A DNA stretch of 60,334 nt, from contig JAKQBR010000308.1 of NCBI GenBank assembly GCA_029574005.1, positions 1 to 60,334 of the forward strand. The letters run 5' to 3'. Position numbers and translations under genes: made by a program. The stretch is from Deltaproteobacteria bacterium (lineage in GTDB: Bacteria; Desulfobacterota; Desulfomonilia; UBA1062). Under the pieces are notes generated by a model. It was given only the letters and a program-made list of their open reading frames with translations, was not told the DNA's origin and did no database searches. This document shows, piece by piece, positions 1,159 through 18,598 of the stretch (positions are counted from its first letter, which is position 1; every line of letters begins with the position of its first letter).

Positions 1159-4100
1159 CTAACCCCAGCAGTTGACGACAACCTTCAAGGCATCGAAAAT
1201 CCCATCGAAGAGCCTCGTTCCAGGCTGGAACTCCTGGTTGTGGAAGAATGTGCTCATATCGTTCATGACCCCGCCGAACTCGATGGCCTGGCCGTTATGA
1301 TCCAGGTGGATGGTCTTGAAGACCATGAGCATGACCGGATCCTGGCCGTTATACGACAGGCACATGGACCGGATGAATTCCCACGAGAGCATGTCATCCA
1401 GGTCATCTCCGAAGATCTTCTCCAGCCAATGCAGGTCCAGAGGATTATACGTCTCGTCCGCGTCTATGAGCCGCCACAGCACATCGCCGTTATCGCCGGT
1501 CAGGTCGAACAGGAAGTTCGTCAGGGGCGCGGTGTCGTAGATGCCCGTATCGCCCATCACGTGATTCACGACATCCATCACCGGCGTGTTGTCGTCATAC
1601 TTAAGCGCGCCGGCGCTCGGGTTATAGGTTGCATCGTAGATGCCCATCACCTTATAGCCCAGGGCCTTGAGGTTGAAGATCAGCGGGTTCTCCTTGCCGT
1701 TCACGTCATCCACGAGGTAGTCAATGAACGGCTGGAGCTTGCTGTCGGCGCTCACATAGTCGTAGTCCACGGTGCTGGCATCGATGATCTCATCCAGTCC
1801 GGGCACGGCCGCGGCCAGGTCTGAGGTAATCAGCTCGGCCTTGTCGCAGACCGTCGCCGCCAGATCCGCTGCCGCCGCGCTCACCTCGGTGTGGACATCG
1901 GCCTGGTTCAAGGTGTTGTTCACCAGGTTCCATACCGCGGTGCGATTGCCTTTGAGGCCTGCGCCGAGTTTGGGCAGCACGCCGGTCTGAACCAGGGCGG
2001 CCACATCGTCGCTGTAGAAGATATCTTTCTGCTTGTCGGTCTGATCCGTCGCGGTCATAATCACATCCCCCAGCGTGGCGCAGACCTGTGCCAACGGTTC
2101 ATGGTTGGCGCTGATGAAGGTATACAGATTATCGATGAACCCATCATCCTCGAACAGATCGTCTATGAGCTCCTGGTTGGTCTTGTCGTCAGGATTGAAA
2201 TCATGCGAGGTCAGAAGGTCGCACAGGTGCCTGAGCAGGTTGCTGTCCTCATACGGGGTTGTATTGAGCTTGTAGAGCACGCGCACCAGCAGGTCCAGTG
2301 CCGGATCCGCGATATCGGCATCATGATTGTAGCGCTCGCCCGAGGCGCCCCGCATGAGGTAATAGATCAACCCGTAGCCATACGGGCCCTCTATGGTCTC
2401 GAAGGCCGTACCGGTGTTGGCCTGGCGCAGGGTGCCCTTGTTCAGCCATATGGACATGGGCATGTAGGAGCTCAATTCAACCTCGTTCATGGCGCCGATG
2501 ACATGGATAAGCTGCGAACCATAGTTTATATCGCCGTAATACTGGATCAGCGGACCGGCCAAGGACAGCATGCGGTGATAATGGCCGGAGGTGAATTTCT
2601 TGTTGTTGCTCCCGGTAAAGGTCACGAGAGAGTTCATGGACTCGGTCATGATGCCCATGACATAGTCGGTCAGGGCGAAATTGGTCACGAAGTTCAAGAG
2701 CCAACTCAGTCCAGGGGTTGGAAGACCCATATATCTTATATCCTCGTTGAACCACAACCAGTCCGTTCCCTGCAGCGGATCTGGATAGGGCCGGTATTCC
2801 GCGGCCGAATCGATTGTGTAGGAGCCATGGAAGGATTTCGGATAGGAGTAGCACGACTGGCCCCAGAGATTGACCACGAACTGCAGGATATCGCTGCGCG
2901 TGCTGATGACCGGGCCGCCCGCCTCGCCTTTCTCGCCATCCTCGATGTCGATCAGGGAGAGGATCGCCTCGGTCGGATCGCCGCTCAGGGTATCCGAGAG
3001 GATGCACATGACGTCGAAGATCAGCATGATGGTGCGCATCTCGCTGAATTTCACCGTGCCGGTTTCGGTGGGCTCAAAGTCCTGATTCATCTGGAACATG
3101 GCACGGTACAGCGCATAATCGATCTCGTTCAGGTCTGGGATTGTATTGGTATAGGGGTCGCGCATATTGTATATCCGGGAAAGCGCGCTCGTCGCCCCGT
3201 AGATATTGTCGGCCCCGTCCAGTCCGTCAATGGCGTTGAGCACCCTAAGCATGAAGGCGCTCAGTTTCCCGCGACCCTCAGGCTTGAGGACATCCCCCAG
3301 GCAGTAGAGCAGGCGCTCCATATCGCTCATCGAACGCGTATCCCAGGCATTGTGTCCGTCGGATGCCTTGTTTGTTTTCATGAGGTGCCCGAGCGCGTAC
3401 ATCATCTTGTCAAGATCCTCCTTGATCTTCGGGTCCTCATCATAGAGTTTGTGCAGCGCGCTGAAGGTATCGATATAGAGCGGCAGGTTGTCCATATCCT
3501 CCAGATCCATATCCGGCAGCATGTCTTTCACATCCCCTACGGTGACATCCAGTCCCCGCTGGTCGATCTTGGCATCCAGTGCGTCCCATGCGTCGCGGAT
3601 GGCCTTGTAGTCCGCATTGTCTTCATCCAGGAAACCATGCGCCGCGTTCACCATGGCGCTGAAGTTCTGTCTGGTGAGCTTGCTGGTATCGAAGCCCAGA
3701 TCATTGATGGTGATTCCGTTCACGGCGTCATCGACTATCTGCTTGTCGCAGGCCATGACATAGGCCATCATCGGGAATACATGGGCCGTGAGGATATCAG
3801 GACCGGCGGTTCTGACGGCACGCGTCATGATGTCGCCGACATTGTTTTCGACCATCATGTCAAGCATGGCCAGCCCCGGGCTGCCGGCGGCTTCCTCGGC
3901 CGCTGTTTTCGGCTTCGTGCTGTCCATCCAGTCAACAATATTATTGAGCACACGGACCAGATTGCTGTAGTCCTCTGCCGAGGCATCGCCCGCGCGCACG
4001 GCCGCGTTCATGTTGCTCATCATGTTGTCGACCATGTCGAACATATCCCGCGAACTCATTCCGCCCAAGACCTGATTGAGATACGCATATTGCGTATCCT

Positions 4101-4623: not shown

Positions 4624-6063
4624 TTAATTGCCCGGCAGGCCGACAAAATCCAGATGCACCGGCAAGACGCAGACCGCATCGGTAGGGAGGCTGAGGAGGA
4701 AGTTTTCGAATTCCTTTTCCTGCTGGATGGTCAGGCCTTCACCAGATACCGGCTCCAATTTGGGCACGACGGCTACTCCGGCTAGAACGGCGTCACCCCA
4801 GCCGTCTAATCGCTCCCCCGTGGCGCTGTGCTTGAGCCCCTTCGAAGTCTCGGTCGTGACATTGGTCACCACGGCCACGCCTGGGAAGGGTATCTCGAAG
4901 ACCACCGGGTTGAAGGTGGCGTCAAAGGCCAGGTCTATCTGTCCGGTTTCCAGATCGACCGATCCCCCCAGTGAATGGGTCTCGATCTCGATGCGCACAA
5001 AGCCCAGCCCCGGAACCTCGCTCAGGAAGCGTATCCAGCCGGGTATGAGATCGAGATTCGGGACATTGAACTCGCTGAATTCCACCAGGGCCTTCTTGCC
5101 GTCATCGCTCAGCGTGTACGTACCAATGCCGTAGGACCCAAAGCCGTCGTAGCCGAAGGTCGGGAAGGTGGATATGGAAAGTTCGGCATCTTTACCGACC
5201 TTCATGAACACGCCCATCTCGCCGGTCGCCGGGGTCGGGGAGCCGGGGAATCGCCCCTCTGGAAAATCCAGGTGTGCTTCCATCTCGGTCACCGCGTCGG
5301 TCGGCAGGGATAGAAGCGCGTTGACGAACTCGGCATCCAACGGTTTTTCAGCACTGACGGCCTTGGGTATCTGTGCCACGCCGGCCAAGCGCAGATCGCC
5401 GCGGGCATTGAGCACGCGGCCGGCATACTCTTTTTCCGGGGCGATCTTGGTCCTGGACACACCGGTGTAAAGATCGGTGACCACGGACATTTCTGGATAT
5501 TCATAGCCGAACACGCTGGGTACAAAACGCGCGTCAAAGGAAAGCCTGACCTCGCCTGTCTTGAAGTCGACATACCCGATGAGGTCCTTGGACTTGATAT
5601 CCACCTGGACCGGGATATCAGGCAGGACAGATACCATATGCAGGGGCGGCACCGATTCCGGGGTGATATTCTCTTCCGGGAAGAACAATTCGGCCTTGCC
5701 GTCGCCGATATAGGTCATGGTCCCTTTTACGCCAGGGCCACGATCATTGTAAGGAAAGGACAAGGGGATAAAACCGATGGGCTTCTCAAAATCCTTCCAG
5801 ATGGTAAGGGTGCTGTCCCGGGTTCCCCAGGCATCGCCATCATGGAAGATGTTGTAGCCGATGGTCAGCCTGACCGGCTTGGTCTGTCCGATGAGATCCC
5901 GGTCCTCCAGCGCGGCCTGTTGTTTGTCCTTCCCGGATAAAGCCGTATCGGCGTCGTCGGAACCCGACCCGTTGCAGCCCGCTGCAACCATCAGCGCCAT
6001 CGCGGCGATGATCAAAGCCAAAGAAAACGACAACCGCACCTCGGCGTCCTTCATAGCTCTCAT
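4624..6063 (-). CDS. Lipoprotein with an internal tandem domain duplication, unknown function (479 aa from the ATG at 6063)
   Basis: RBS GAGGAGG lies just before the ATG at 6063, so the track start at 6081 is probably too long. Lipobox ALMVAAGC. Two repeated ~155-aa modules each end in LLSLPTDAV....HLDF. Confidence 0.7.
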   Translation of the reverse strand: MRAMKDAEVRLSFSLALIIAAMALMVAAGCNGSGSDDADTALSGKDKQQAALEDRDLIGQTKPVRLTIGYNIFHDGDAWGTRDSTLTIWKDFEKPIGFIPLSFPYNDRGPGVKGTMTYIGDGKAELFFPEENITPESVPPLHMVSVLPDIPVQVDIKSKDLIGYVDFKTGEVRLSFDARFVPSVFGYEYPEMSVVTDLYTGVSRTKIAPEKEYAGRVLNARGDLRLAGVAQIPKAVSAEKPLDAEFVNALLSLPTDAVTEMEAHLDFPEGRFPGSPTPATGEMGVFMKVGKDAELSISTFPTFGYDGFGSYGIGTYTLSDDGKKALVEFSEFNVPNLDLIPGWIRFLSEVPGLGFVRIEIETHSLGGSVDLETGQIDLAFDATFNPVVFEIPFPGVAVVTNVTTETSKGLKHSATGERLDGWGDAVLAGVAVVPKLEPVSGEGLTIQQEKEFENFLLSLPTDAVCVLPVHLDFVGLPGN

Positions 6064-6118
6064 GATGTCAATCCTCCTCATTCGTATTCATCCGGGGATG
6101 CACGGCATCCCCAAGAGC

Positions 6119-6153
6119 AAAAAACGGGACACGGTAGCGTGTCCCGTTTTTTT
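6119..6153 (-). terminator. Rho-independent (bidirectional) terminator after the flavoenzyme/microprotein operon
   Basis: A-run, then ACGGGACAC/GTGTCCCGT 9-bp stem (6124-6132 / 6139-6147), then T-run. It sits 4 nt after the microprotein stop at 6157. Confidence 0.7.
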
Positions 6154-6156
6154 GTT

Positions 6157-6294
6157 CTATGTCAGGTACCGGAAAGGAATATAGGGCACCTGTTTGATCA
6201 GCAGCATGAAATAGCGGCGCCGTCTGGGCATCCGGATGATCTCAAAGGCCCAGTATCCCAGCAGACCCAATAACAGGTATTTTTTAATGTTCAT
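6157..6294 (-). CDS. Microprotein A (45 aa), single predicted TM helix plus conserved C-terminal VPYIPFRY motif
   Basis: Hand translation: MNIKKYLLLGLLGYWAFEIIRMPRRRRYFMLLIKQVPYIPFRYLT. RBS GGAAGGAG lies 7 nt upstream. It starts 15 nt after the stop of the upstream flavoenzyme gene. A paralogue is at 9535-9678. Not in the ORF track (<60 aa). Confidence 0.6.
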   Translation of the reverse strand: MNIKKYLLLGLLGYWAFEIIRMPRRRRYFMLLIKQVPYIPFRYLT

Positions 6295-6309
6295 GGCATA
6301 TCTCCTTCC

Positions 6310-7857
6310 TTAAAGGTGATCCTGCTTGATCAGATCGCTCGTGATCAGGGCCGAAGACATGACGGTTGGGATACCACCGGACATGTGCGTGGAAGCCCCC
6401 ACCAGGTAGAGATTCTTGATGGCCCATGAGCGCGAGCGCGGCCGCAAGGGCCCCAGTGTGGTCATATCAAAGTCCAGTCCATAAATGCATCCGCGCGGAG
6501 CCAGGAGCCGGCGTTCGAAATCGAGCGGCGTGGACACCTTGGCATAGACGATATGCTTCTTGATGCCGGGCGAGAATACGCGGTCAAAGAAATCAATGCC
6601 CTCGTCCAGATAGCGATTGCGCATATTGTCCCAGTTGGTCCCGATCGGCGCATAGGGCACCGGCGCATTGTAGACGAAGTTTACGATATGGTGCCCCTTG
6701 TGAGACGACAGCTCCGGGTCTGCGTCCGTTGGCCAGCAGGCCAGCGACAGGCCGTTGCCGCGCGGCATGCAGTCGGCTTTATAATCGTACCACACCTTGT
6801 TCACGCTCGCCAGATCGGCCGCCAGCATGGTGTGGTGGGCGTTCAGGGCCGGTTCGGTATCCATGGCAAGGTAGATCATGGGGCAGCCCATGGACGGTGT
6901 ATAGGAGTTTATGCCGACATTGATGTGCCAGGGCAGGTTGTCGCGACCCACGAGGTTCTTGTAGGTCGTGAGCGCGCTGATATTGGAAAGCACGATGGGT
7001 GCCGTGATCTCCGTGCCGTCGGCCAGGCGCACGCCTTTGGCCTCTTTGTTTTTGCTCAAGAGGATGCGATCCACCAGGGTATTGGTCCTGATCTCGGTGC
7101 CGAATTCCTTGGCCACGGCCGCCAGGCCGTTGGGGATGGCGATCATGCCGCCCCTGGGATAGTAGATGCCGTAGTGCTCGGTCAAGGCAATGAGCCCCAG
7201 GAAGCCGGGGCAGAGCTCGGGGGCGGCGCCGACGAAGTAGCTCTGGAACGCCATGGAGCCGAGCACGATCGGGTCCTTGAAGCTTTTGCTGATGACGGAT
7301 TCATGCGTGGAGGCCATGAGCGGCAGCATGGAGGAGGTGCCGGGATTCTTGAGGACCATCTTTATGCAATCGGTCAGGGTCTGCATGGAGGAGCCCAGGA
7401 CCGCCATCAGATTCTTGTCGATCATCTTTTTGCCGTCGGCGGCGAATTTCCGGAAGGTCTCGCCGTCTTGCGCGTTGATGCTGGAGATGACCTTGCAGGT
7501 CTCTTCCCAGTCCACCGGGTAGGCGAACTTCTGGCCCTTCTCGTTGACGAAGGCATAGATCGGATCGCAGGGGATCAGATCCATATAGTCCTCCACCTTG
7601 CGCCCGCAGCGTTTGAAGACCTCATACATGGGGTCCACGAGCTCCACGATGGAGGCGCCGACATCGAGTTTATACCCTTCGTCTTCATAGGTCGAGCAGC
7701 AACCGCCGATGATACTGGACTGTTCCAGGACCAACACCTTGAGCCCCTGTTTGGCAAGCATGGCTGACGTGGCAAGTCCACCGATACCGGCCCCGATAAC
7801 GATCATATCGTAGTCGTATTGATTGGTTCCGAATTTAACCTTGGGATTTCTGCCCAT
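6310..7857 (-). CDS. Phytoene-desaturase-superfamily (CrtI/CrtISO/RetSat-like) FAD oxidoreductase, paralogue 3 (515 aa)
   Basis: N-terminal Rossmann motif DMIVIGAGIGGL...VLE, then GGCCSTYEDEGYKLDVGASIVEL, GIYYPRGGM, and C-terminal LYLVGASTHMSGGIP. RBS AAGGAGAA. Confidence 0.85.
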   Translation of the reverse strand: MGRNPKVKFGTNQYDYDMIVIGAGIGGLATSAMLAKQGLKVLVLEQSSIIGGCCSTYEDEGYKLDVGASIVELVDPMYEVFKRCGRKVEDYMDLIPCDPIYAFVNEKGQKFAYPVDWEETCKVISSINAQDGETFRKFAADGKKMIDKNLMAVLGSSMQTLTDCIKMVLKNPGTSSMLPLMASTHESVISKSFKDPIVLGSMAFQSYFVGAAPELCPGFLGLIALTEHYGIYYPRGGMIAIPNGLAAVAKEFGTEIRTNTLVDRILLSKNKEAKGVRLADGTEITAPIVLSNISALTTYKNLVGRDNLPWHINVGINSYTPSMGCPMIYLAMDTEPALNAHHTMLAADLASVNKVWYDYKADCMPRGNGLSLACWPTDADPELSSHKGHHIVNFVYNAPVPYAPIGTNWDNMRNRYLDEGIDFFDRVFSPGIKKHIVYAKVSTPLDFERRLLAPRGCIYGLDFDMTTLGPLRPRSRSWAIKNLYLVGASTHMSGGIPTVMSSALITSDLIKQDHL

Positions 7858-8004
7858 ACAATTCTCCTTGCTTCATGTCTCCATGCCTTAAGCATGGGGG
7901 AGTCCCCGCTCCTCACCGCAAGAGGGGGACGGTGAGGCGACGGGGCATGGGGCCCGTTTCCGGCTCATGCCGGAAGGCAGGCCCCGGGGTACATTGGTTC
8001 TGCC

Positions 8005-9513
8005 TTAGAGCTTATAATCCTGCTGAATCATATCGCCGACACAGACACCCGAGGCCGTGGTGGGTGGCACGCCGCCGCCCAGATGCGTGGAGGCGCCGCA
8101 GAGATACAAACCCTTGTAGAGAGGCGATCGCATGCGCGGCCTGAACATGGCAGTCTTGGTGAGGTCGTTCATGAGGCCGTAGACCGCGCCCTGCGGATGC
8201 AGGAAGCGGCGCTCAAAGGTCTTGGGGTCGATCAGGCGCTTGACCGTGATATGCTTGCGCAGATCCAGATGGAACTTCTTCTCCATGGTGTCCAAGGTGG
8301 CTTCGAGATAGCGCTCTTTGTACTCTTCGTCGTCCCAGTCGCCGTCCGCCAGATGATAGGGTGCGAAGGTGACCAGATTGAGCGAATGGTGGCCCTTGGG
8401 CGCCATGGACGGATCGGCGTGCGACGGCCAGGAGATGAGCATGAAGCCGCCCAGCGGGAGCTTGTTGTTTTCGTAGTCGCGGAACCAGATGTTGTTCATC
8501 TCTTCCAGCGTTGTGTAGCAGAAGGTGTGGTGGCACGTGAGGTCCGGCTTGGCATCCAGACCCAGGCATACCATGGGGGCCGGTATGGAGTAGGGGTAGC
8601 TCTTGATCGCGATATTGGCCCAGATAGGCAGCTTGGCCTCGCCGATCATCTGCTCGTACACAACGCGGGCATTGACGTCCGAGACCACGATCTTGGAGCG
8701 AACCTCGGTGCCGTCGGCAAGCTTCACGCCGATGACCTTCTTGCCCTCGGTCAGGATCTTGTCGACTTTGGTCTTGAGCTGGAGCGTACCGCCGTCTTCC
8801 TTGAAGGCCTTGAGCATGCCGTTGGGGATCCCGATCATGCCGCCCTTGGGGTAAAAGATTCCCATGTGCTCGGAATAGGCCAGGTAGGCCACATATCCTG
8901 GGCACAGGGCCGGCGGCAGACCGAGGAAGTAGGACTGCAGGCTCATGGAGGCCCGCACCTTCTCGTTCTCGAAAGAGCTGGTGAGCACCTGCTCGAAGTT
9001 CTTGACCATGACCGGGGCCACCTTGGCCATCTTCGGATTCTCCAGGAAGATCTTGGTGGCGGCCGTGAAGGTCATCATGGGCTTGGTCATGACCTTGCCG
9101 AAGGCCTCTTCGATCGCCTCTGCGCCAACCTTGCAGAAGGCATCCCAGTTCCTCCCGTCGGCCGGATTGAACTTCTCGATCACCTTGCGGGTCTCTTCAG
9201 GAGAAACCGGGTAGGAGAACTTCTGCCCGTCTTCGGTCAGGAAGCCGTAAATGGGATCGATGGGCTGGAAGGGGATATAATCCAGCGTCTTGCGGCCAAT
9301 CTTCATGAAGAGCTCATCCATGACGAAATTGAGCTCCACGATGCTGGCGCCGGTATCAAAGGTATACCCATTCTCGGTATAGGAACTGCAGCAGCCGCCG
9401 ACATTGCCGGAGTTCTCGAATACGACGGTCTTGAGCCCGCGATGCTGGCAGAGCGCGGCGGCGCTCAAGCCACCCAGCCCTGCACCAATGACTATCACAT
9501 CATAATCTGTCAT
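8005..9513 (-). CDS. Phytoene-desaturase-superfamily (CrtI/CrtISO/RetSat-like) FAD oxidoreductase, paralogue 2 (502 aa)
   Basis: DVIVIGAGLGGL, GGCCSSYTENGYTFDTGASIVEL, GIFYPKGGM, LYLCGASTHLGGGVP. Colinear with its neighbours at 6310 and 9716. Confidence 0.85.
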   Translation of the reverse strand: MTDYDVIVIGAGLGGLSAAALCQHRGLKTVVFENSGNVGGCCSSYTENGYTFDTGASIVELNFVMDELFMKIGRKTLDYIPFQPIDPIYGFLTEDGQKFSYPVSPEETRKVIEKFNPADGRNWDAFCKVGAEAIEEAFGKVMTKPMMTFTAATKIFLENPKMAKVAPVMVKNFEQVLTSSFENEKVRASMSLQSYFLGLPPALCPGYVAYLAYSEHMGIFYPKGGMIGIPNGMLKAFKEDGGTLQLKTKVDKILTEGKKVIGVKLADGTEVRSKIVVSDVNARVVYEQMIGEAKLPIWANIAIKSYPYSIPAPMVCLGLDAKPDLTCHHTFCYTTLEEMNNIWFRDYENNKLPLGGFMLISWPSHADPSMAPKGHHSLNLVTFAPYHLADGDWDDEEYKERYLEATLDTMEKKFHLDLRKHITVKRLIDPKTFERRFLHPQGAVYGLMNDLTKTAMFRPRMRSPLYKGLYLCGASTHLGGGVPPTTASGVCVGDMIQQDYKL

Positions 9514-9534
9514 CTCACGATCCTCTTTTACGCC

Positions 9535-9678
9535 CTAGATGAAGTATCTGAACGGCAGATAAGGCACATTCTTGGCAAGATGGATGAGATAGCGCTTCGT
9601 GCTGAGCGAAAGCGTGAACCACTTTCCTACCGCGCCAACGGCCAGCAGGAGCCATGCAAGTTTGACCAGTTTTGACAT
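9535..9678 (-). CDS. Microprotein B (47 aa), paralogue of microprotein A
   Basis: Hand translation: MSKLVKLAWLLLAVGAVGKWFTLSLSTKRYLIHLAKNVPYLPFRYFI. RBS AGAGGAGG lies 6 nt upstream. It is wedged between two flavoenzyme genes, with gaps of 37 and 21 nt. Not in the ORF track. Confidence 0.6.
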   Translation of the reverse strand: MSKLVKLAWLLLAVGAVGKWFTLSLSTKRYLIHLAKNVPYLPFRYFI

Positions 9679-9715: not shown

Positions 9716-11221
9716 TTATGCGCGAGCTTCCAGGATCTTGTCCGCGGTCACGACGCCGGAGGCCACCGATGTCGGCACGCCGCCGCCGAAGTGCGTTGAA
9801 GCACCGGCCAGGAACAGGTTCTTGATGACCCGCGACTTGTTGCTCATGCGGAACATGGCCAGCGAGGTGATATCCGAGAACAGGCCATAGATGCCGCCTT
9901 CCGTATGCAGCAGCCGGCGCTCGAAATCGAGCGGGGTGGAGACATCCATCATCGTGACATGTTTGCGGGCATCCGGCAGGACGTACTTCTCGAGCTCCTT
10001 GAGGCCCTGCTCTTTGTACCAATCCTTGCAGCGATCCCAGTTCTCGCCGATCGGGGCGTAGGGGGCCGGGGCGTTGCAGATCCAGTTCAGCACGTGGTGA
10101 CCTTCCGGTGCCAGGGTCGGATCGGCTTCGGTGGGCCAGCAGATGAGGCTCATGGCGTTCTGCGGGATGAGCCCCTTCATATAGTAGTCATCCCAGACGG
10201 AATTCATCTTCTCCAACGGTCCGGTTACGATGGTGTGGTGGGCATTCAGGTTGGGCTTGGCATCCAAGCCGACATAGATCATGGGGCACGGCATGGACTT
10301 CTGATAGCTTGAAACCGCTATATTAGCCCAACGCGGCAGGATCTCCGGACCGATGAGCTTGAGGTAGGTGACCTTGCCATTGATATTGGAAACGACGATA
10401 TCGGCCGTGATCTCGGTACCGTCTGAAAGCACGACACCCTTGGCGGTCTTATCCTTGACGATAATCTTATCGACCTTCTTGTTGAGCTCGACCTTGAGGC
10501 CGTATTCCTGCCCGGCGCGCATGATGGCTGAAGGGATACTGATCATGCCGCCCTTGGGATAATAGATGCCAAGGTGCTCGGAAAGAGCGATCATGCCGAA
10601 GATACCGGACCCCAGGTAAGGCGGACAACCGGCAAAGAACGACTGGAAGGAAACCGAGGCCAGCATGTCCTTGTTCGTGAAGGCCTTTCTCACGCACATC
10701 TCATGGTTCTGGACAAAGTACGGCAGGATCTTGTAGAGCTTGGGATATTTCGCAACGATTTTCATGGCGGCGCCGAAGGTATTCATATCGGCGCAGAGCA
10801 TGGCCTCCATGGCATAGTGCAGGAGCCACATCCCAAACTCTTCAAATTTGACCCAGCTATCATAGTCCTCGGGGGCCATCTTCTTGATGACCTCGCGGGT
10901 CCCCTCCAGGCTCGTCGGCATGGTGAAGCGCTTGCCTTCCGGGGTAATGAACGAATAGATCGGATCACAGGGGACGAGATCAAGGTAATCCTTGATATTC
11001 TTGCCCATGCGTTCGAAAACGACTTCAAGCGGGCGCACCAGTTCGACGATAGAGGCACCCACATCAAATTTATAGCCCTGGTTCTCGAAGGTCGAGCAGC
11101 ATCCGCCGATGACATTGTTCTGCTCAAGGACCAAAACCTTCATGCCCTTCTTGGAAAGCAGCGAACCCGTCGTAAGCCCGCCCAACCCGGCACCTATGAT
11201 TATCGCATCATAATCAGCCAT
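9716..11221 (-). CDS. Phytoene-desaturase-superfamily (CrtI/CrtISO/RetSat-like) FAD oxidoreductase, paralogue 1 (501 aa from the ATG at 11221)
   Basis: RBS AAGGAGAAGG precedes MADYDAIIIGAGLGGL, so the track start at 11281 is probably an over-extension. Motifs GGCCSTFENQGYKFDVGASIVEL, GIYYPKGGM, LFLAGASTHFGGGVP. Confidence 0.85.
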   Translation of the reverse strand: MADYDAIIIGAGLGGLTTGSLLSKKGMKVLVLEQNNVIGGCCSTFENQGYKFDVGASIVELVRPLEVVFERMGKNIKDYLDLVPCDPIYSFITPEGKRFTMPTSLEGTREVIKKMAPEDYDSWVKFEEFGMWLLHYAMEAMLCADMNTFGAAMKIVAKYPKLYKILPYFVQNHEMCVRKAFTNKDMLASVSFQSFFAGCPPYLGSGIFGMIALSEHLGIYYPKGGMISIPSAIMRAGQEYGLKVELNKKVDKIIVKDKTAKGVVLSDGTEITADIVVSNINGKVTYLKLIGPEILPRWANIAVSSYQKSMPCPMIYVGLDAKPNLNAHHTIVTGPLEKMNSVWDDYYMKGLIPQNAMSLICWPTEADPTLAPEGHHVLNWICNAPAPYAPIGENWDRCKDWYKEQGLKELEKYVLPDARKHVTMMDVSTPLDFERRLLHTEGGIYGLFSDITSLAMFRMSNKSRVIKNLFLAGASTHFGGGVPTSVASGVVTADKILEARA

Positions 11222-11296
11222 AGCCTTCTCCTTATAAGACTTTCTGCATGCACATGATATACGATCACTGCATTTGAACACTGTATGACCGAATAA

Positions 11297-11470: not shown

Positions 11471-12643
11471 CTAGAGCAGTTTCGCTATTTGGGCCTGCAG
11501 CCAGTTGCCGATGCTCTTTTTATAACCCGGCATATAGGTGTCCATGAAGTGCTGGATGCGCATATTCTCATTCCCGACATCCACCATGAGCTGCCCGTAA
11601 TTTTCCGGCACGTCCCGCCGATCCGCGCGCAAAACCATATGCAAGGCACCGGCCTTACACTTCGAGGCGCATATCCCGCAGCCGATGCAGCGCCAGGGCT
11701 CGTGGATCAGTTTTTTGTCGTATATATGCAGCGCTCCGGCCGGACACACCTTGGCGCAAGCACCGCAGGACGTACAGAGGCCGGCATCGAAGCGCACGAC
11801 ATAACGGCTGTTGACAAACATGGCCGGGGTGTTGAACCTCGTCATGGTGGCGAGTGATACGCAGCAGCAGGCGCAGCAGTTGCAGCAGATAGCCGGATTC
11901 TCGATATTGTCCGTAAAGTGAACCAGACCGGACTCTTCGGCGCGATCGACCGCCTCCAATATTTCCTGTTTGCTGACCATGCGGCCGAAGCCCACCTTCT
12001 CCACGTAACGGGCCGCCGCGCCGAACTGCATGCACACGTCCATGGGATGCGAACAGCGCTGACCGACGTACTCCTTCTGCCTCCTGCAGGCACAGGCCGA
12101 GGCCAAGGACCAGGCATCCTGGCGATCGATGATTTCACGAATGCTCTCCGACGGCAGAACACCGGTTTTGATATCCGGCAGACTCTCCTGAATCGGAATG
12201 ATGCGAAACACCTTTGATGGGCCGATGAGCATCTTCTGTGAATATTCAAGATTATAATACTGCTCGAAGAGCTCAGCGAACCTGCGGGTCCTTTCGTCAT
12301 CAGGGGCCTTGTACATGAAGGCCTCAAAGATGCCCGGCATCATCGGCATGACGATATATTTACGGTCCGCGCCGTCCCCGAAGGCGAATATCACCCCCCG
12401 GTCGGCCAATCTGTCCAGGATAACCCGGACCTCCTCCACCGGGCGGTGCACCCGTCGGGCGACCTTTTCGGCCGTGGGGCTCAGGATCGTTACCTTGCTT
12501 GCGATGAGGGCCTCTTCCTCACTGAACAACAGCTCGAGGATCTCAAGCAGCAGTTCATTGATGACGGATTTCAGCGGGGGCAATTGGTTCAAACGTTTTG
12601 CGAGCAGTTTATGCGCCTTGGTAGCCACGGAACCTCCTATCAA
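11471..12643 (-). CDS. Winged-helix-like N-domain / Cys-rich / 2x[4Fe-4S] ferredoxin-domain protein (390 aa)
   Basis: The C-terminus carries CTSCGACAKVCP and CIGCGICASKCK ferredoxin motifs. Extra Cys clusters: CACRRQ...C.....C and NPAICCNCCACCC. The N-terminal segment LSPTAEKVARRVHRPVEEVRVILDRLADRGVI looks MarR/wHTH-like. Confidence 0.7.
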   Translation of the reverse strand: MIGGSVATKAHKLLAKRLNQLPPLKSVINELLLEILELLFSEEEALIASKVTILSPTAEKVARRVHRPVEEVRVILDRLADRGVIFAFGDGADRKYIVMPMMPGIFEAFMYKAPDDERTRRFAELFEQYYNLEYSQKMLIGPSKVFRIIPIQESLPDIKTGVLPSESIREIIDRQDAWSLASACACRRQKEYVGQRCSHPMDVCMQFGAAARYVEKVGFGRMVSKQEILEAVDRAEESGLVHFTDNIENPAICCNCCACCCVSLATMTRFNTPAMFVNSRYVVRFDAGLCTSCGACAKVCPAGALHIYDKKLIHEPWRCIGCGICASKCKAGALHMVLRADRRDVPENYGQLMVDVGNENMRIQHFMDTYMPGYKKSIGNWLQAQIAKLL

Positions 12644-12936: not shown

Positions 12937-14298
12937 CTAGCTCTCTTCGAGCTGGTGGTTTAAGAAATAATAGAGGAACCACGACATATTCTCGGCATAC
13001 TCTTCCTTGCTGCACTCCAGGACGCCCATGTTCCTCAGGAAGGTTGAAAAGCTCACGGTTGAAAGGATGATCTGCGCGGCGATGACGGGATCGACGTCGG
13101 TGCAAAAACCCTGCTCCTTGAGGGCGGCGATACGAAGACCCAGCGTTTCGGCGAAGGAGGAGAAATAGCCACGGTAATGGTTGCTGATCTTATCGCTGCA
13201 GAAGGTGCCCTGCAGGATAGCCCAGTTGAATGGGGTATCGAAGATATCCACGATCTGGTAGCTGATCCTTCTGAGTTCTTCTATGGACGACGTGTCCAGG
13301 CGTGCGATGAAATCCTTTGACGTCGCATTGAGCGGATTTATCCTCGAGATCATATTGCTGAAGACCGCTTCGATAATATCATCCTTGTCCTTGAAATAGA
13401 GGTAGAACGTCCCCCGGCTCAAGTCCGCGCGCTTGGCGATATCCGCGATGGTCGTATCGAAGTACCCCTTGGCCGCCAGCTCTTCCTCGGCCGCCTTGAT
13501 CAGCTCCTTGCGGGTCTTCTTATCCTTTTCCGAACCGTTGCGCCCCTTCTTGCCGGTCCGGCGCGCGCCTTTTTCGAGCATAAAGCCTGGGTAGAGGATG
13601 CCGGTGATCGTCTTGGCTAGATCCTCGTGAGTGGCCGTGATCATGCCCATGGTGCTCATCAGAATGGAGGTGGCAATACAGATGGACATGAAATCCGCCA
13701 GGATATCGACATTACAGTCCCGATAGCGCCCTTTCTTCTGCACCGTCTTGAGCACAACCTTGAAGATGTAGGCCGAGTCGCGCACGGCCTGCGTCGAGAG
13801 GGCAAAAATCTCCTTGCTCTGCAGCATGCCCTGCACAAGGGCCTTCATAAGGCCGGAGGCCATGGCCAGGGATTCCACAACCGTCCGAATGGTACCCTCA
13901 AACAGAGGAAGCAACTCCGGGGTAAGGGTGACCTTCTGGATATTGATCTGAGAGTTCACCGCATTGGAGATCTGCGGCACCATCTGCAGAAGGTCCTGCA
14001 CCATTGCCTTGAGGATATCGTTCTTGTTTTTGAAATACAGATAGAACGTGCCGTGGCTCACCCCGGCACGCTGGGTGATGGAATCCACATTGGTCAGGTA
14101 ATAGCCATGCTCGCTGAATTCCTTGATGGCCGCATCCAGCAGCCGCTGGCGCGTTTGTTCGCTGGCCACCTGTGTAGGTACAGTATTATATTCCAAGATT
14201 AGCCCTCGTGGGCCTAGTGCTAGCATCCCGGTCGCCGGTCTGTCAACTGTTCGCCTCGACGCATGACCACGGCGAGGTTCTTCACTGCCATCATGCAA
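12937..14298 (-). CDS. TetR-family regulator made of two complete TetR units in one polypeptide
   Basis: Two HTH boxes: TRQRLLDAAIKEFSEHGYYLTNVDSITQRAGVSHGTFYLYFKNKNDIL and TRKELIKAAEEELAAKGYFDTTIADIAKRADLSRGTFYLYFKDKDDII. Each is followed by a ~150-aa ligand-domain-sized region. The true start is uncertain; an alternative is the ATG at 14226. Confidence 0.8.
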   Translation of the reverse strand: MHDGSEEPRRGHASRRTVDRPATGMLALGPRGLILEYNTVPTQVASEQTRQRLLDAAIKEFSEHGYYLTNVDSITQRAGVSHGTFYLYFKNKNDILKAMVQDLLQMVPQISNAVNSQINIQKVTLTPELLPLFEGTIRTVVESLAMASGLMKALVQGMLQSKEIFALSTQAVRDSAYIFKVVLKTVQKKGRYRDCNVDILADFMSICIATSILMSTMGMITATHEDLAKTITGILYPGFMLEKGARRTGKKGRNGSEKDKKTRKELIKAAEEELAAKGYFDTTIADIAKRADLSRGTFYLYFKDKDDIIEAVFSNMISRINPLNATSKDFIARLDTSSIEELRRISYQIVDIFDTPFNWAILQGTFCSDKISNHYRGYFSSFAETLGLRIAALKEQGFCTDVDPVIAAQIILSTVSFSTFLRNMGVLECSKEEYAENMSWFLYYFLNHQLEES

Positions 14299-14545: not shown

Positions 14546-15946
14546 GTGCGTATGCCGGAAAAAGTATTTGACTGCGTGGTGATCGGTTCCGGGGTCGGCG
14601 GAAGTTGCGCCGCCGCCATGATGGCCCACTACGGCTACAAGGTGCTCCTGGCGGAAAAACGCGCCAATCTGGGCGGCAGGTTTTCAACCATGGAGATCGA
14701 CGGCTTCAAATGCCCCACCGGCGCATTGATCGTCACGCGTGGGACCGAGCTGGAAAAGACCTTCAAGGTCACCGGAGCCGAGTTCGACATCGTGAAGGCC
14801 GCCCAGGTCTCCTGGAAGATCGGCGACACGGTCTACCCGGTCTCCGGCCCTGGTGCGCTCAAGACCCTGTGGTCACTCTTCACCAAGCTGCCGCCCAGGC
14901 TCTACCGCTATGCCTTCATGTCGACGCTCAGACTCTTCGGCGCCATGGGGGAAATACTCTTCTTCAAATTCTTAAACCTGTTCCGCAAGGAGGAGGATTA
15001 CGTCTATCGCCGACATGAGGAAAACCCGGTCACGTTCCGTGAATGGATCGAGAGATACACGGACGACAAGGTCGTGATACAGTCCGTGCACGCCTTCATC
15101 TCGGCCCTGTTCAGCGCCATCAATGACTTCGAATGTCCGGCATCGGATGTCTTCGCCTTCGGCGCCAGCATGGCCAACCCCTTCAAGCCCCACACCTTCG
15201 GCTTTGCCCGTCACGGCAACGTCGAGCTCATGAAGTCCCTGGCACGGGTCGTCACGCAGAAAGGCGGCGAGGTTATGACCGAGACCGAGGTCAAAGAGAT
15301 CAAGATCTCGAATGGCGTGGCCACCGGCGTGGTCCTCGTCGGCCCGCAGGGCGAGTTCGAGGTCGCGGCCAAGACCGTGATCAGCAATGCCGGGCCCAGC
15401 GCCACCATGAACATGGTCGGCGAGCGGCACTACCCTGAGCCCTATGTGCGCAAGCTTAAGCAGACCCTGAGGCCGGCGCCCATCGTCATGGGCAACATCG
15501 CGAGCGACGTGCCGCTGATCGACCACAAAGGGCTCGTGGTCATTACCGGCACCAAGACCATTGTGGGCGCCGTAAACCTGACGTACCACACCAGGGATGT
15601 CGCCCCTGAAGGCCAACACCTCCTCTGGACCTTTGCCACGCCCGCCACCTGCACAAGCAAGATCGACAAGGAGATGGAGATCCGCCACCACATGGAGGAC
15701 CTGGAGACCGCCTTCCCGCTCTTCAAACAGCACGGCCGCGTGCTAGATCTCATGGTCAAGGACATCGACGACGATCTGCCCTGTTTGCGCACCTGGCCGG
15801 GGTATGACATGCCAGTGACCACCCCGATCCCCAACCTCTTCAATGTGGGCGACGGCGTCAAGGACTTCGGCTGGACGGGTTGCCCGGCCTGCGCCAAGAG
15901 CGCCTGGAAGGTTGTGAAAAAGATCCGCAGGGATTACCCGCTGTAG
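14546..15946 (+). CDS. FAD-dependent oxidoreductase, phytoene-desaturase/amine-oxidase superfamily (466 aa)
   Basis: RBS GAGGAGG. Motif VFDCVVIGSGVGGSCAAAMMAHYGYKVLLAEKRANLGGRFST (GxGxxG ... E ... GGR). Confidence 0.8.
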   Translation: MRMPEKVFDCVVIGSGVGGSCAAAMMAHYGYKVLLAEKRANLGGRFSTMEIDGFKCPTGALIVTRGTELEKTFKVTGAEFDIVKAAQVSWKIGDTVYPVSGPGALKTLWSLFTKLPPRLYRYAFMSTLRLFGAMGEILFFKFLNLFRKEEDYVYRRHEENPVTFREWIERYTDDKVVIQSVHAFISALFSAINDFECPASDVFAFGASMANPFKPHTFGFARHGNVELMKSLARVVTQKGGEVMTETEVKEIKISNGVATGVVLVGPQGEFEVAAKTVISNAGPSATMNMVGERHYPEPYVRKLKQTLRPAPIVMGNIASDVPLIDHKGLVVITGTKTIVGAVNLTYHTRDVAPEGQHLLWTFATPATCTSKIDKEMEIRHHMEDLETAFPLFKQHGRVLDLMVKDIDDDLPCLRTWPGYDMPVTTPIPNLFNVGDGVKDFGWTGCPACAKSAWKVVKKIRRDYPL

Positions 15947-16075: not shown

Positions 16076-17413
16076 ATGGGTGCCACGTATGATGCCATCG
16101 TCATTGGGGCCGGTATCGCCGGTTTAGGAATCAGCGGGATTCTGGCCCGCGCGGGGAAAAAGGTGGTTTTGCTGGAAAAGAACTCCCATGTGGGAGGAAG
16201 GGCCGCCACCTTCAAAAAGGACGGCTGGGTGCGCAGCATCGGCCAGCATGCCGCCTTGAAAGGCCAGCGATACGACACCCTGCTGCAGACCCTCGGGGTT
16301 GACTGCCCGCGCGAGTATTTCGGCGACCTGCAGATGTATTATGAAGGCCAGTTCAAAAGCATACTCGACATCATCCCCACGTTGGTCGCCCGCTTGAGTC
16401 CGGAAGACAACCTGAGGATTGCTGAAAAGCTGCTCAACCCGGCCGTCGATCTGGATGCGCTCGACGACATCTCCGCCGATGTATGGATTAAAGAGATCAT
16501 AACCGATGAGGTCTTGCTGGACTTCATGCGCATGGCAACGGTTATCATGACGACCATCCCCTTCATGAAGGATATGGCCGCCAGCACCCTGAAGGAATCC
16601 ATCATGATCATTACGCGCACCATGGAAACCTGGCTGGCTGCCAACGGCATGGGTGAATTCATGGAGGCCATGGCCGCCGACATCCGGCGGCATGGCGGAG
16701 AAATTCGGACGAACACCCCGGTGGAAAGGATCCTCATCAAGGACAAGAAGGTTCTCGGGGTTCTGGCCGGGGAGAAGATTGTAGCGGAAGTGGAAGGGGA
16801 GTTCGGCAATGTCACCACGATCGAGGCGCCGGTGGTCATATCCGCCATCCCCGTCTGGGAGATCTTCAAGATCGCCCCACAGGACGAGTTCCCGCAGGAT
16901 TTCGTGAAAAAGGCCTGGAATGTGTCGGCACACACCGCCAATCTGGGGCTTACCGCCGGGCTGAAAAAATCGGTCTACGAAGGCCGCGGATTGCTCATGG
17001 TCGATTATCCGAGCCTCGGATACCCGGGCAGCATCTTCATGCCCACCAATGTCTGCCCGAACCTGGCCCCTGCTGGCTACCAGCTTTTTGAGGCCTCCAT
17101 CATCTGCGACTACGACATCCGCAAAGACCCGGAACAGCTGCACCACATGATGGCCATGCTCAACAAAGACCTGCAGACATGGTTCCCCGGCTGGGACAAG
17201 CAGGCACTATGGATCAAGAACTACTTCCATTATGAAGAACCGAAACGCACCCCGGGTCGCGCCGGCAGGCATCGCCCCGATTACACGGCCGCAGGGATTC
17301 AGGGGCTGTTCCTGTGCGGGGATTCGATCGGCTCCCGCTGCCTGCCGGGGATGGAGTGCGCCGCCGATTCGGCCATGACCTGCGCCGAGATCGTGCTCGG
17401 CACGATGAAATGA
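16076..17413 (+). CDS. FAD-dependent oxidoreductase, phytoene-desaturase/amine-oxidase superfamily (445 aa)
   Basis: RBS GAGGAG. Motif YDAIVIGAGIAGLGISGILARAGKKVVLLEKNSHVGGRAATF and C-terminal LFLCGDS. Confidence 0.8.
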   Translation: MGATYDAIVIGAGIAGLGISGILARAGKKVVLLEKNSHVGGRAATFKKDGWVRSIGQHAALKGQRYDTLLQTLGVDCPREYFGDLQMYYEGQFKSILDIIPTLVARLSPEDNLRIAEKLLNPAVDLDALDDISADVWIKEIITDEVLLDFMRMATVIMTTIPFMKDMAASTLKESIMIITRTMETWLAANGMGEFMEAMAADIRRHGGEIRTNTPVERILIKDKKVLGVLAGEKIVAEVEGEFGNVTTIEAPVVISAIPVWEIFKIAPQDEFPQDFVKKAWNVSAHTANLGLTAGLKKSVYEGRGLLMVDYPSLGYPGSIFMPTNVCPNLAPAGYQLFEASIICDYDIRKDPEQLHHMMAMLNKDLQTWFPGWDKQALWIKNYFHYEEPKRTPGRAGRHRPDYTAAGIQGLFLCGDSIGSRCLPGMECAADSAMTCAEIVLGTMK

Positions 17414-17488: not shown

Positions 17489-18598
17489 ATGAAAAGGCTA
17501 TCTATACTCATGGTTGCTGTCATGTTCTTCATCGCGGCATGTTCACAGAAGGACGGTGACAGCCGGCAGAATTCGACCGATACCAAGACATCTGCCCAGG
17601 AAACGTCCGCAATCGATTACTCCCGGTACGAAAACCTTGACGTGGATTCGTACGCTGATTTTAATTCACTGCCCGCCGATCTGAAGGAAGATGTCTATGC
17701 AAAGGCATTGCTCCTTGCCGGTCTGATGGATCGATCCAGAGGATGCAAAGAATGCAATGCTGTTTCCGCCGGCATCTATTCCACGATCAACTCGGTGGCC
17801 TGCCTGCTGTACCATTGCTGGAAGCCCATGGTCTCGTGCGTCATCGACGGAGAGTGCAGGACGCAGCTCATGTCTTTAGGCGACTGCGTTCTCAAAGGCG
17901 GCGACGCAATGATGCTGTGCTGTATCGACGTCTTTTCAAAGCCCAACGAGAAGCTCATGGCAATGATGTCGTCCCTGGGAGACAGCGGATGCATGCCTGA
18001 ACCCGTGCTGAACTGCGCCCTCCCCACGAACAGGAACCAGATCGCGCCCGTCTCCCTGGCGGACCTAGAAGGCGACTGGTATGTGGTGCGCGGATTGAGC
18101 CCCGTCTATGACTGCTTCAGCGGCCAGAGATATTCGTTCCACCAGATAAGCGAGACCGTATCGACGTACGACTATACCTACTTCCCGAAGGACAAGGGAA
18201 CCCCGACACTGATCAAATGCACCACCACCGCGATTCCTTTTGCCCCGGGCGAGACAGAGATCTTTCCGGGGCGCTTCCGCGTCAACTACACGGCCTATGG
18301 GATGCCGGGCGTTGACGACTGGTTCGTCCTGAGCCATCCAAAGAGAGATTACCTGCTGATATTCTACTGCGGGGCAAACGCCATGGACTCATACGTGGGG
18401 GGCATCGTGCTCAGCCGTTCGCTCGATACCGATATCCCCAAGGATATCCTGAATGCCTTTGAGGACGCGCTGGCCAATGCCGGCATCGCCGATCCGGTTT
18501 CGCTGGCGGATTTCTGCACCCCGGACAATTCGGGGATTACCTATGACGATACCGCTGAGAGCTGGGAATCGACCCTGTTTCTGTCCTCACTCTACTGA
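17489..18598 (+). CDS. Violaxanthin de-epoxidase (VDE)-like lipoprotein: Cys-rich N-domain plus lipocalin domain (369 aa)
   Basis: RBS AAGGAGG and lipobox FFIAAC. There are 11 Cys between residues 86 and 176 (ACLLYHC....C....C...). The lipocalin part (GDWYVVRGLSPVYDCFSGQRYSFH; DDWFVLSHPKRDYLLIFYCGANAMDSYVGGIVLSRS; FCTPDNS) matches, from memory, the plant VDE blocks [59 protein letters not shown] and TDNTCGPEP. Confidence 0.7.
   Translation: MKRLSILMVAVMFFIAACSQKDGDSRQNSTDTKTSAQETSAIDYSRYENLDVDSYADFNSLPADLKEDVYAKALLLAGLMDRSRGCKECNAVSAGIYSTINSVACLLYHCWKPMVSCVIDGECRTQLMSLGDCVLKGGDAMMLCCIDVFSKPNEKLMAMMSSLGDSGCMPEPVLNCALPTNRNQIAPVSLADLEGDWYVVRGLSPVYDCFSGQRYSFHQISETVSTYDYTYFPKDKGTPTLIKCTTTAIPFAPGETEIFPGRFRVNYTAYGMPGVDDWFVLSHPKRDYLLIFYCGANAMDSYVGGIVLSRSLDTDIPKDILNAFEDALANAGIADPVSLADFCTPDNSGITYDDTAESWESTLFLSSLY

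Follow-up and report, generated by a model that had tools for sequence, protein, structure and literature searches.

A phylum-spanning family of small proteins paired with an uncharacterised clade of CrtI-like flavoenzymes

Do the short reading frames that lie between the flavoenzyme genes of a bacterial operon encode proteins, and if so, what could the enzymes use them for? This question is raised by contig JAKQBR010000308.1 of a Deltaproteobacteria bacterium, which was analysed over a stretch of 60,334 nucleotides (positions 1 to 60,334), hereafter called the window. On its minus strand, three genes for enzymes of the CrtI family that use flavin adenine dinucleotide (FAD), named FlavoA, FlavoB and FlavoC, are accompanied by two small open reading frames (ORFs), named micro1 and micro2 (Table 1). 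An earlier reading of the DNA sequence, the original prediction, had described both as translated, paralogous microproteins that may tether the flavoenzymes to the membrane or the quinone pool. The analysis presented here assigns them to a new family of small proteins whose genes accompany an uncharacterised clade of enzymes. The family is conserved, spans several phyla and has been missed by curated libraries, and the CrtI-like clade to which it is tied is large. A small anchor subunit as such is a familiar idea; the advance lies in the new family and the new pairing, not in a new principle.

Two small genes and their family

The two minus-strand ORFs were found with the coordinates and translations originally assigned to them. 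The ribosome-binding sites claimed for them correspond to Shine-Dalgarno sites closely preceding both ATG codons, and their short distances from the flavoenzyme genes were also recovered: micro1 starts 15 nt past the stop codon of FlavoC (TAA, 6312-6310), and micro2 starts 37 nt past that of FlavoA (TAA, 9718-9716). Gene positions, spacings and a hairpin 3' of micro1 give the operon order FlavoA-micro2-FlavoB-FlavoC-micro1-terminator. With an A run on one flank and a T run on the other, this hairpin can be read as a terminator on either strand. The two peptides are paralogues, as had been proposed. They share 41% identity across 37 residues in a single pairwise comparison (E=1e-7), a likeness that is not due to chance.

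Table 1. Features of the flavoenzyme operon and its surroundings in the window
Feature	Coordinates	Strand	Remarks
micro1	6157-6294	minus	45 aa, MNIKKYLLLGLLGYWAFEIIRMPRRRRYFMLLIKQVPYIPFRYLT; 'C-type' subtype (...PRRRRYFMLLIKQVPYIPFRYLT); last gene of the operon
micro1 Shine-Dalgarno site GGAAGGAG	6309-6302	minus	7 nt before the ATG at 6294
micro2	9535-9678	minus	47 aa, MSKLVKLAWLLLAVGAVGKWFTLSLSTKRYLIHLAKNVPYLPFRYFI; 'A/B-type' subtype (...STKRYLIHLAKNVPYLPFRYFI); between FlavoA and FlavoB
micro2 Shine-Dalgarno site GAGGAGG	9691-9685	minus	6 nt before the ATG at 9678
FlavoA, CrtI-family FAD enzyme	9716-11221	minus	501 aa from MADYD; mechanical ORF start is a GTG at 11281
FlavoB, CrtI-family FAD enzyme	8005-9513	minus	502 aa; start 21 nt past the micro2 stop
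FlavoC, CrtI-family FAD enzyme	6310-7857	minus	515 aa; reading frame shared with micro1
Intrinsic terminator	6119-6152	minus	Hairpin, 15-bp stem, flanked by an A run and a T run; 5 nt past the micro1 stop
2x[4Fe-4S] ferredoxin-domain protein	11471-12643	minus	390 aa; upstream of FlavoA; homologues near the module in 12 loci
Tandem TetR-family regulator	12937-14298	minus	453 aa, two TetR_N domains; TetR genes recur in 14 loci
Predicted lipoproteins, 1021 aa and 485 aa	1159-4224 and 4624-6081	minus	Signal peptide and Cys in each
FadL/TodX-like outer-membrane porin/channel	138-1085	minus	Downstream of the flavoenzyme operon
Two distant amine-oxidase/CrtI-like flavoproteins and a VDE-lipocalin protein	14546-15946, 16076-17413, 17489-18598	plus	Divergent from the tandem TetR gene

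FlavoC and micro1 lie in one frame, with a single TAA and five codons (GRRYA) between them (6295-6312), so that read-through of the stop codon would yield a fusion protein. This in-frame layout is not conserved. In the close relative L001, the two genes overlap by 14 nt and occupy different frames.

That micro1 and micro2 are genuine, translated and conserved genes is strongly supported. Both ORFs are retained in L001, which shares about 82-85% DNA identity with the window, and the ratio of non-synonymous to synonymous substitution rates (dN/dS) in this comparison is 0.15 for micro1 and 0.12 for micro2. In 17 pairwise codon comparisons, the ratio ranged from 0.02 to 0.46 and was below 0.3 in all but one, with dS values of up to 2.3. 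Divergence at silent sites has been free, but the peptide sequence has been maintained, which indicates purifying selection. About 100 homologues from at least four phyla, all of 43-67 aa, keep the frame intact, with no frameshifts or internal stops. Purifying selection and this set of homologues bear out the earlier inference of translation.

The homologues were collected in two ways. A scan with the flavoenzyme alignment, restricted to one genome per species, gave 79 loci, and a hidden Markov model (HMM) of the peptide run on the six frames of these flavoenzyme loci found 56 small ORFs in 42 of them, every one of which terminates two residues past an invariant Arg-Tyr. Metagenome contigs were scanned with the peptide motif alone ([VA]PY[LI]P[YFG]RY[FLY][IAT], derived from 12 closer members), yielding 50 peptide genes in 48 loci. 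A word-index search with the two window peptides returned 3 proteins only, and an exhaustive profile search returned 16, including P0005 and P0018, which are spurious repeats. The 414-aa protein P0035, which appeared in a peptide cluster, was discarded as a clustering artefact; by eye, it looks like an unrelated, much larger enzyme.

According to the labels of their metagenome-assembled genomes (MAGs), the hosts belong to Actinomycetota (Geothermincola, Solincola, Anoxymicrobiaceae), Anaerolineae, Syntrophaceae/Smithellaceae/Syntrophales, Desulfomonilia and 'Bacteriovoracaceae'. The hosts of the clade are anaerobes, represented by Syntrophales, Desulfomonilia, Anaerolineae and Actinomycetota of the Geothermincolia type.

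The peptides form an uncurated and previously undescribed family of small proteins. No Pfam-A or NCBIfam HMM matched micro1 or micro2, and the same libraries gave only scattered weak matches to unrelated models, each for one or two members, when searched with 34 diverse members. The term 'unannotated' holds for the ORF track on which the original prediction was based but not for public protein sets, NCBI nr included, in which both exact sequences are already present. The cluster mates of micro1 and micro2 in public databases are nameless or called 'hypothetical protein', and the same applies to all of the 63 database relatives save one, an evident misnaming. The peptide tail motifs were not found in the published literature, and a literature search for phytoene desaturases in Syntrophaceae or in fatty-acid contexts gave nothing relevant.

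Pairing with one clade of flavoenzymes

FlavoA, FlavoB and FlavoC are mutual paralogues with 43-45% identity. Their scores against TIGR02734 (296.7, 294.8 and 280.8 bits, respectively; curated cut-off 238.1) place them in the CrtI family, at subfamily level only. The cut-offs of the carotenoid equivalogs CrtID, CrtD, CrtISO and CrtO were not reached, the best value being 242 against 640 bits for CrtID and the others lying far below. The N-termini open directly with the FAD-binding Rossmann motif (DYDxIVIGAGxGG). The AlphaFold2 (AF2) model of FlavoC, with a predicted local distance difference test (pLDDT) score of 92, has the three-domain CrtI/CrtD fold and finds its nearest structures in 4REP (TM-score 0.82/0.86) and 4DGK (0.62/0.77); FlavoB matches the 4DGK CrtI with E=2e-52. 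The enzymes have no membrane-spanning-like segment, and no signal peptide was seen when their N-terminal sequences were read.

The clade is set apart by a near-invariant Cys-Cys in the motif G-G-C-C-S-[TS]-[YF], at residues ~39-55 of FlavoA, FlavoB and FlavoC. This GGCCS replaces the GGR of CrtI in 83 of 88 subfamily genes and in 4 of 60 outgroup genes, and is a handy signature of the clade. The two Cys residues could form a thiol pair close to the flavin or serve as the site of its covalent attachment. One candidate identity was rejected. The limonene dehydrogenase CtmAB and the steroid delta-24 desaturase are defined by the motif G-F-[LR]-x-[NS]-[TL]-H-A for covalent flavin mononucleotide (FMN) (PMC11061730). 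This motif is absent from FlavoA, FlavoB and FlavoC and occurs in none of the 88 subfamily genes; GGCCS is what the subfamily has at this place.

The HMM scores of the flavoenzymes are bimodal, with 88 subfamily genes at or above 500 bits and 62 outgroup genes below 400 bits, and the peptide genes follow this division. A small ORF on the same strand lies directly adjacent to 68 of the 88 subfamily genes, usually at a distance of 10-21 nt. Away from contig ends, an adjacent peptide gene accompanies 65 of 82 subfamily genes and only 1 of 50 outgroup genes (Fisher p=4e-20, uncorrected for phylogeny); this single outgroup gene lies downstream of a pair formed by a subfamily gene and its peptide. 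Recurrent small hydrophobic ORFs of other kinds were looked for beside the outgroup CrtI-like genes, and none were found. The reverse test on metagenome contigs, in which the tail motif was sought irrespective of its neighbours, gave the same picture: 47 of 50 peptide genes found by motif adjoin a subfamily flavoenzyme. The remaining peptide genes are those of L129, which is a short contig, and of L123/L124. In the latter (~3890-4066), a family member (...ESRKRFIKHLARQVPYLPGRYYA) stands right after a gene for a PlsC-type acyltransferase, with no CrtI-like gene within 4 kb. The pairing is clearly broken in L123/L124 alone, which hint at a connection to membrane lipids.

Peptide subtypes also track the enzyme clades in a neighbour-joining tree of the flavoenzymes. 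Orthologues of FlavoA are followed by a peptide of the form ...STRRY..GKQVPYLPYRYFI and then by orthologues of FlavoB, and orthologues of FlavoC are followed by a peptide of the form ...PRRxRY..KQxPYIPFRYLT. The peptides of further clades read ...EPSDWRY..LPKMPFRYFV, ...ESKKRF..KQxPYLPGRYYA and ...KKRFLKE..PYLIPRYFV. At least 12 loci from genomes and many from metagenomes keep the FlavoA-micro-FlavoB triad, and orthologues of micro1 occur in L001, L005, L015 and L016, each directly after a FlavoC orthologue. Both arrangements, the triad and the FlavoC-micro pair, are seen across MAGs of the Actinomycetota, Chloroflexota and Desulfobacterota types. Peptides and flavoenzyme clade are linked by specific, reciprocal synteny and by co-diversification, which lend strong support to a functional tie between them, and the tie first noticed from a single locus holds for the family. 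The peptide can serve as a marker that separates this clade from true carotenoid desaturases, with which it is confused under the annotation 'phytoene desaturase'.

Some loci depart from the simple pattern. The EPSDWRY...LPKMPFRYFV subtype follows a subfamily flavoenzyme in L005 (8756-10585), L010, L033 and L045. A distant CrtI-like gene lies directly after the peptide gene in L005 (24% identity) and further along in the other three (24-26%), an arrangement that may represent a heteromer of dissimilar subunits. In two Deltaproteobacteria-type MAGs, a second, divergent peptide gene stands right after that of the C-type peptide (L015, 13315-13488; L016, 5980-6150). Its product has a hydrophobic helix followed by ...KPNLRYYL..T.KD..Y.Y.RYHV, and thus keeps R-Y-x-x-COOH and little else.

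Fusion proteins were considered as evidence of interaction and rejected. Long stop-to-stop segments in L005, L011, L021, L049 and L050 are open frames in GC-rich DNA and not fusions, since the flavoenzyme there lies in another frame. Among the 120 best FlavoC homologues, no chain exceeds 518 aa.

Peptide architecture and proposed role

A gapless alignment of 88 unique sequences was anchored at the C-terminus, from which all positions are counted. In it, a short N-terminus of basic character leads into a hydrophobic helix of ~16 residues that varies in sequence; a second helix, basic and amphipathic, comes next, and P-Y-L-P-x-R-Y-x-x forms the exact C-terminus. The hydrophobic helix, the basic stretch and the shared tail, originally noticed in two peptides, are thus features of the whole family. 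Arg-4 and Tyr-3 are 100% conserved, followed by Pro-9 (93%), Arg-19 (91%), Gln-11 (89%) and Pro-6 (86%), and the same invariants appear in the genome subset. Ahead of the hydrophobic helix is an N-terminal tail with a median length of 6 aa and a charge of +2. The uncharged run that follows it has a median of 16 aa (11-24) and a KD15 of ~2.4; positions -40 to -30 are at least 92% hydrophobic, with low information content. An aromatic residue at -28 is succeeded by D/E-S-(K/T)-(K/R)-R-(Y/F) and by the basic amphipathic stretch, with hydrophobic residues at -18, -17, -14, -13 and -10. The C-terminal part, with a median of 26 aa and a charge of +4.5, ends in the consensus Q-x-P-Y-L-P-x-R-Y-(F/Y)-(I/A/V)-COOH. 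The AF2 model of micro1, of low confidence (pLDDT 67), has helices at residues 3-21 and 23-35 and coil in the last ten residues (36-45).

On sequence, the peptides have the traits of a single-pass membrane protein of the signal-anchor type, namely one hydrophobic helix and a more positive C-terminal side. The reading favoured here, with a probability of about 0.6, is that each peptide acts as a membrane anchor or adaptor subunit for its cognate flavoenzyme, with the N-terminus outside and the C-terminus inside the cell. The sequence-variable hydrophobic helix would be embedded in the cytoplasmic membrane, the basic amphipathic helix, which is conserved, would rest at its surface, and the extended P-Y-L-P-x-R-Y-x-x-COOH tail would dock on the flavoenzyme. 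Such an anchor, supplied in trans, would keep an enzyme that is soluble by itself at the membrane, near a lipophilic substrate, and perhaps near a redox partner that is also at the membrane. The tail is placed inside the cell because the C-terminal side is the more positively charged and the partners are cytoplasmic. The tail of micro1 would dock on FlavoC, and that of micro2 probably on a FlavoA/FlavoB heteromer; the latter is suggested by the FlavoA-micro2-FlavoB arrangement, which is like that of CtmAB and the delta-24 steroid desaturase. An anchor or subunit role fits the variable helix, the charge of the C-terminal side, the tail conserved up to the C-terminus and flavoenzymes that have neither a membrane segment nor a signal peptide. 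From these features we infer membrane insertion, topology, physical binding and any effect of the tail on the enzyme. If the role is as proposed, the expression and assay of enzymes of this clade would probably require the peptide, and its omission could explain inactive or mislocalised protein.

Several observations weigh against the proposed anchor. At 11-24 residues (median 16), the hydrophobic run falls on the short side for a helix that spans the membrane, and 2-4 positive charges are found at the N-terminus as well, so that the topology is ambiguous. Among the subfamily genes away from contig ends, 17 have no adjacent peptide gene, some of them in clusters of several paralogues in which the peptide gene is one or more genes away; about 10 subfamily loci have no peptide gene at all, and the peptide of L123/L124 goes with an acyltransferase and not with a flavoenzyme. 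Given these 17 genes and L123/L124, the partnership is strong but not obligate in cis. The metagenome set was chosen by motif, which inflates the conservation of the tail (the last ten positions somewhat), and every locus comes from MAGs or metagenomes. Synteny and co-diversification, finally, would fit a transient assembly or regulatory factor too.

Such a factor, which might help the enzyme to load flavin or dimerise, or might block its substrate tunnel before arrival at the membrane, is an unlikely alternative. It draws on the identical synteny and co-diversification evidence, on the subfamily genes that lack a peptide gene, and on L018 and L031, in which a single peptide gene within a cluster of 3-5 flavoenzyme paralogues points to a sub-stoichiometric or shared component. 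However, all members retain the hydrophobic helix, which a soluble chaperone would not need, and one would sooner expect tight translational coupling (gaps of 10-21 nt) and tails specific to a clade of a stoichiometric partner.

It is improbable that the tail is inserted into the flavoenzyme and forms part of its active site or of its channel for the substrate or electron acceptor. If it were so, these would be the first three-component, peptide-dependent CrtI-type enzymes. At the extreme, the Tyr of the tail could be oxidised to a membrane-tethered, peptide-derived redox cofactor.

More doubtful still is the possibility that the peptide is a precursor modified by the flavoenzymes, either in the manner of ribosomally synthesised and post-translationally modified peptides or as a cofactor of the PqqA/MftA type, with the invariant R-Y as the modification site. 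The conserved extreme C-terminus, with Arg-4 and Tyr-3 at a fixed distance from the carboxylate, the variable N-terminus and the position of the peptide genes beside oxidoreductases would suit a precursor. PqqA and MftA are themselves small soluble peptides with a conserved, Tyr-containing C-terminal end, are encoded beside redox enzymes and need a radical-SAM maturase. The micro peptides share with them the conserved Tyr near the C-terminus and the location beside redox enzyme genes but differ in possessing a hydrophobic helix, which is atypical of a precursor when placed at the N-terminus. Nor do genes for radical-SAM proteins, YcaO, peptidases or exporters recur nearby, which leaves such a precursor without a maturase. 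The recurrent neighbours are instead TetR/FadR regulators, acyl-CoA ligases, beta-oxidation proteins, Fe-S/FAD proteins and a glycyl-radical enzyme, and the CrtI/CrtD fold suits long lipophilic substrates.

An N-terminus that acts as a cleavable Sec signal peptide, releasing a basic peptide of ~25 aa for export, for example as a signal or an antimicrobial, is very improbable. MKK followed by ~15 hydrophobic residues does resemble a signal peptide, and some members have small residues past the helix (e.g. ...AAWFQASES). A conserved cleavage motif (small-x-small) is nevertheless missing at -29 to -23, several members have no N-terminal charge at all, and the partner enzymes are cytoplasmic. Moreover, 4-8 Lys/Arg residues follow the helix, and in micro1 the RMPRRRR directly after it disfavours export.

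The idea that the ORFs are chance products, non-coding or mere spacers for translational coupling, conserved as an RNA or DNA element, could appeal to their very short length and missing family annotation but is effectively refuted by synonymous sites near saturation alongside conserved amino acids (an RNA element was rejected on the dN/dS values and the absence of any Rfam match in the micro-ORF region) and by a frame and exact C-terminus kept in at least four phyla of differing G+C content.

Known systems, neighbouring genes and likely substrate

CrtI (4DGK) and the gamma-carotenoid desaturase (4REP) are the closest characterised relatives of the partner enzymes, with which they share the HMM family and the fold. 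The partner enzymes differ from both in being only 22-25% identical to them, in having GGCCS for GGR and in scoring below all carotenoid equivalog cut-offs; unlike carotenoid desaturases, they occur in anaerobes and in catabolic or lipid gene contexts. CrtI acts peripherally on lipophilic substrates, and to our knowledge, no small partner protein has been described for it.

For the proposed anchor, the nearest analogues in function are the monoamine oxidases and single-helix subunits such as CydX. Membrane tethering of a soluble-type flavoenzyme is known from monoamine oxidases A and B, which use a C-terminal transmembrane helix and share the flavoenzyme fold superfamily with FlavoC, as judged by structural matches. 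Their anchor is part of the enzyme chain, whereas the anchor proposed here is a separate gene product that would dock via its C-terminal tail. CydX of cytochrome bd and KdpF are small proteins of ~30-50 aa with one hydrophobic helix, whose genes lie within the partner operon and frequently escape annotation. The micro peptides resemble them in size, in the single helix and in being encoded in an operon, without any sequence relationship. CydX and KdpF bind integral membrane complexes by helix-helix contacts; here, in contrast, the partner is of the soluble type, and the tail is conserved rather than the helix.

The limonene dehydrogenase CtmAB and the steroid delta-24 desaturase are heteromeric COG1233 flavoenzymes of anaerobic terpenoid and steroid degradation (PMC4109377, PMC11061730). 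Enzymes of the CtmAB type have a pair of paralogous CrtI-like subunits, the products of neighbouring genes, and use hydrophobic isoprenoids as substrates in the absence of oxygen (PMC4109377, PMC11061730). FlavoA-micro2-FlavoB resembles such paired subunits but lacks their covalent-FMN motif. In the ctm cluster of Castellaniella defragrans, the hypothetical genes ctmC and ctmD are listed directly beside ctmB; they have no database matches (best BLAST E-values 2.3 and 4.1) and went undetected in proteomics (PMC4109377). By analogy, ctmC and ctmD may be candidates for small partners of a COG1233 flavoenzyme.

The genes around the operon bear on the likely substrate. In the window, two predicted lipoproteins without any family match in Pfam or NCBIfam lie between the flavoenzyme operon and the FadL/TodX-like channel, and may form an uptake or binding system for a hydrophobic substrate. 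Both are present in L001; the 485-aa protein is also found in L005 and the 1021-aa protein in L030. The tandem TetR_N regulator amounts to a fused TetR dimer. The two flavoproteins encoded divergently from it on the plus strand have the normal GGR motif and no small peptide gene alongside.

In other loci, the recurrent neighbours are TetR regulators (14 loci), the Fe-S protein (12 loci) and acyl-CoA synthetases (10 loci), together with a 537-aa protein (10 loci), its partner protein (5 loci) and an 836-aa protein (6 loci). Except for TetR and the Fe-S protein, these family names come from inspection of the sequences by eye, which likens the 537-aa protein to FAD-linked oxidases, the partner to a CCG-domain protein and the 836-aa protein to glycyl-radical enzymes.

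A Syntrophales MAG (L132/L133, 8488-20141) has the order flavoenzyme-peptide-flavoenzyme-peptide, followed by a hydrophobic ORF of 66 aa. Precomputed Pfam assignments place FadR, three acyl-CoA ligases, MaoC and a multifunctional enzyme of beta-oxidation further along the same locus, which suggests that the clade acts on fatty-acyl-type substrates. Taken together, the FadL-like porin, the lipoproteins, the VDE-lipocalin protein, FadR and the beta-oxidation and acyl-CoA synthetase contexts point to a lipophilic substrate at the membrane of an anaerobe. This substrate is probably fatty-acyl or isoprenoid-like, and the gene contexts point to its uptake and beta-oxidation.

The original prediction had named the membrane or the quinone pool as the place to which the flavoenzymes are tethered. 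The architecture of the peptides fits an anchor or subunit; any link to quinones is conjectural and gained no specific support. The recurrent 4Fe-4S protein suggests a different electron partner in at least some of the loci, and the protein encoded upstream of FlavoA may possibly fill this role. In L134/L135 (5865-10159), a flavoenzyme-peptide pair stands directly after genes for a multihaem cytochrome c-like protein and a ferric-reductase-type membrane flavocytochrome, which are possible membrane partners for electron transfer.

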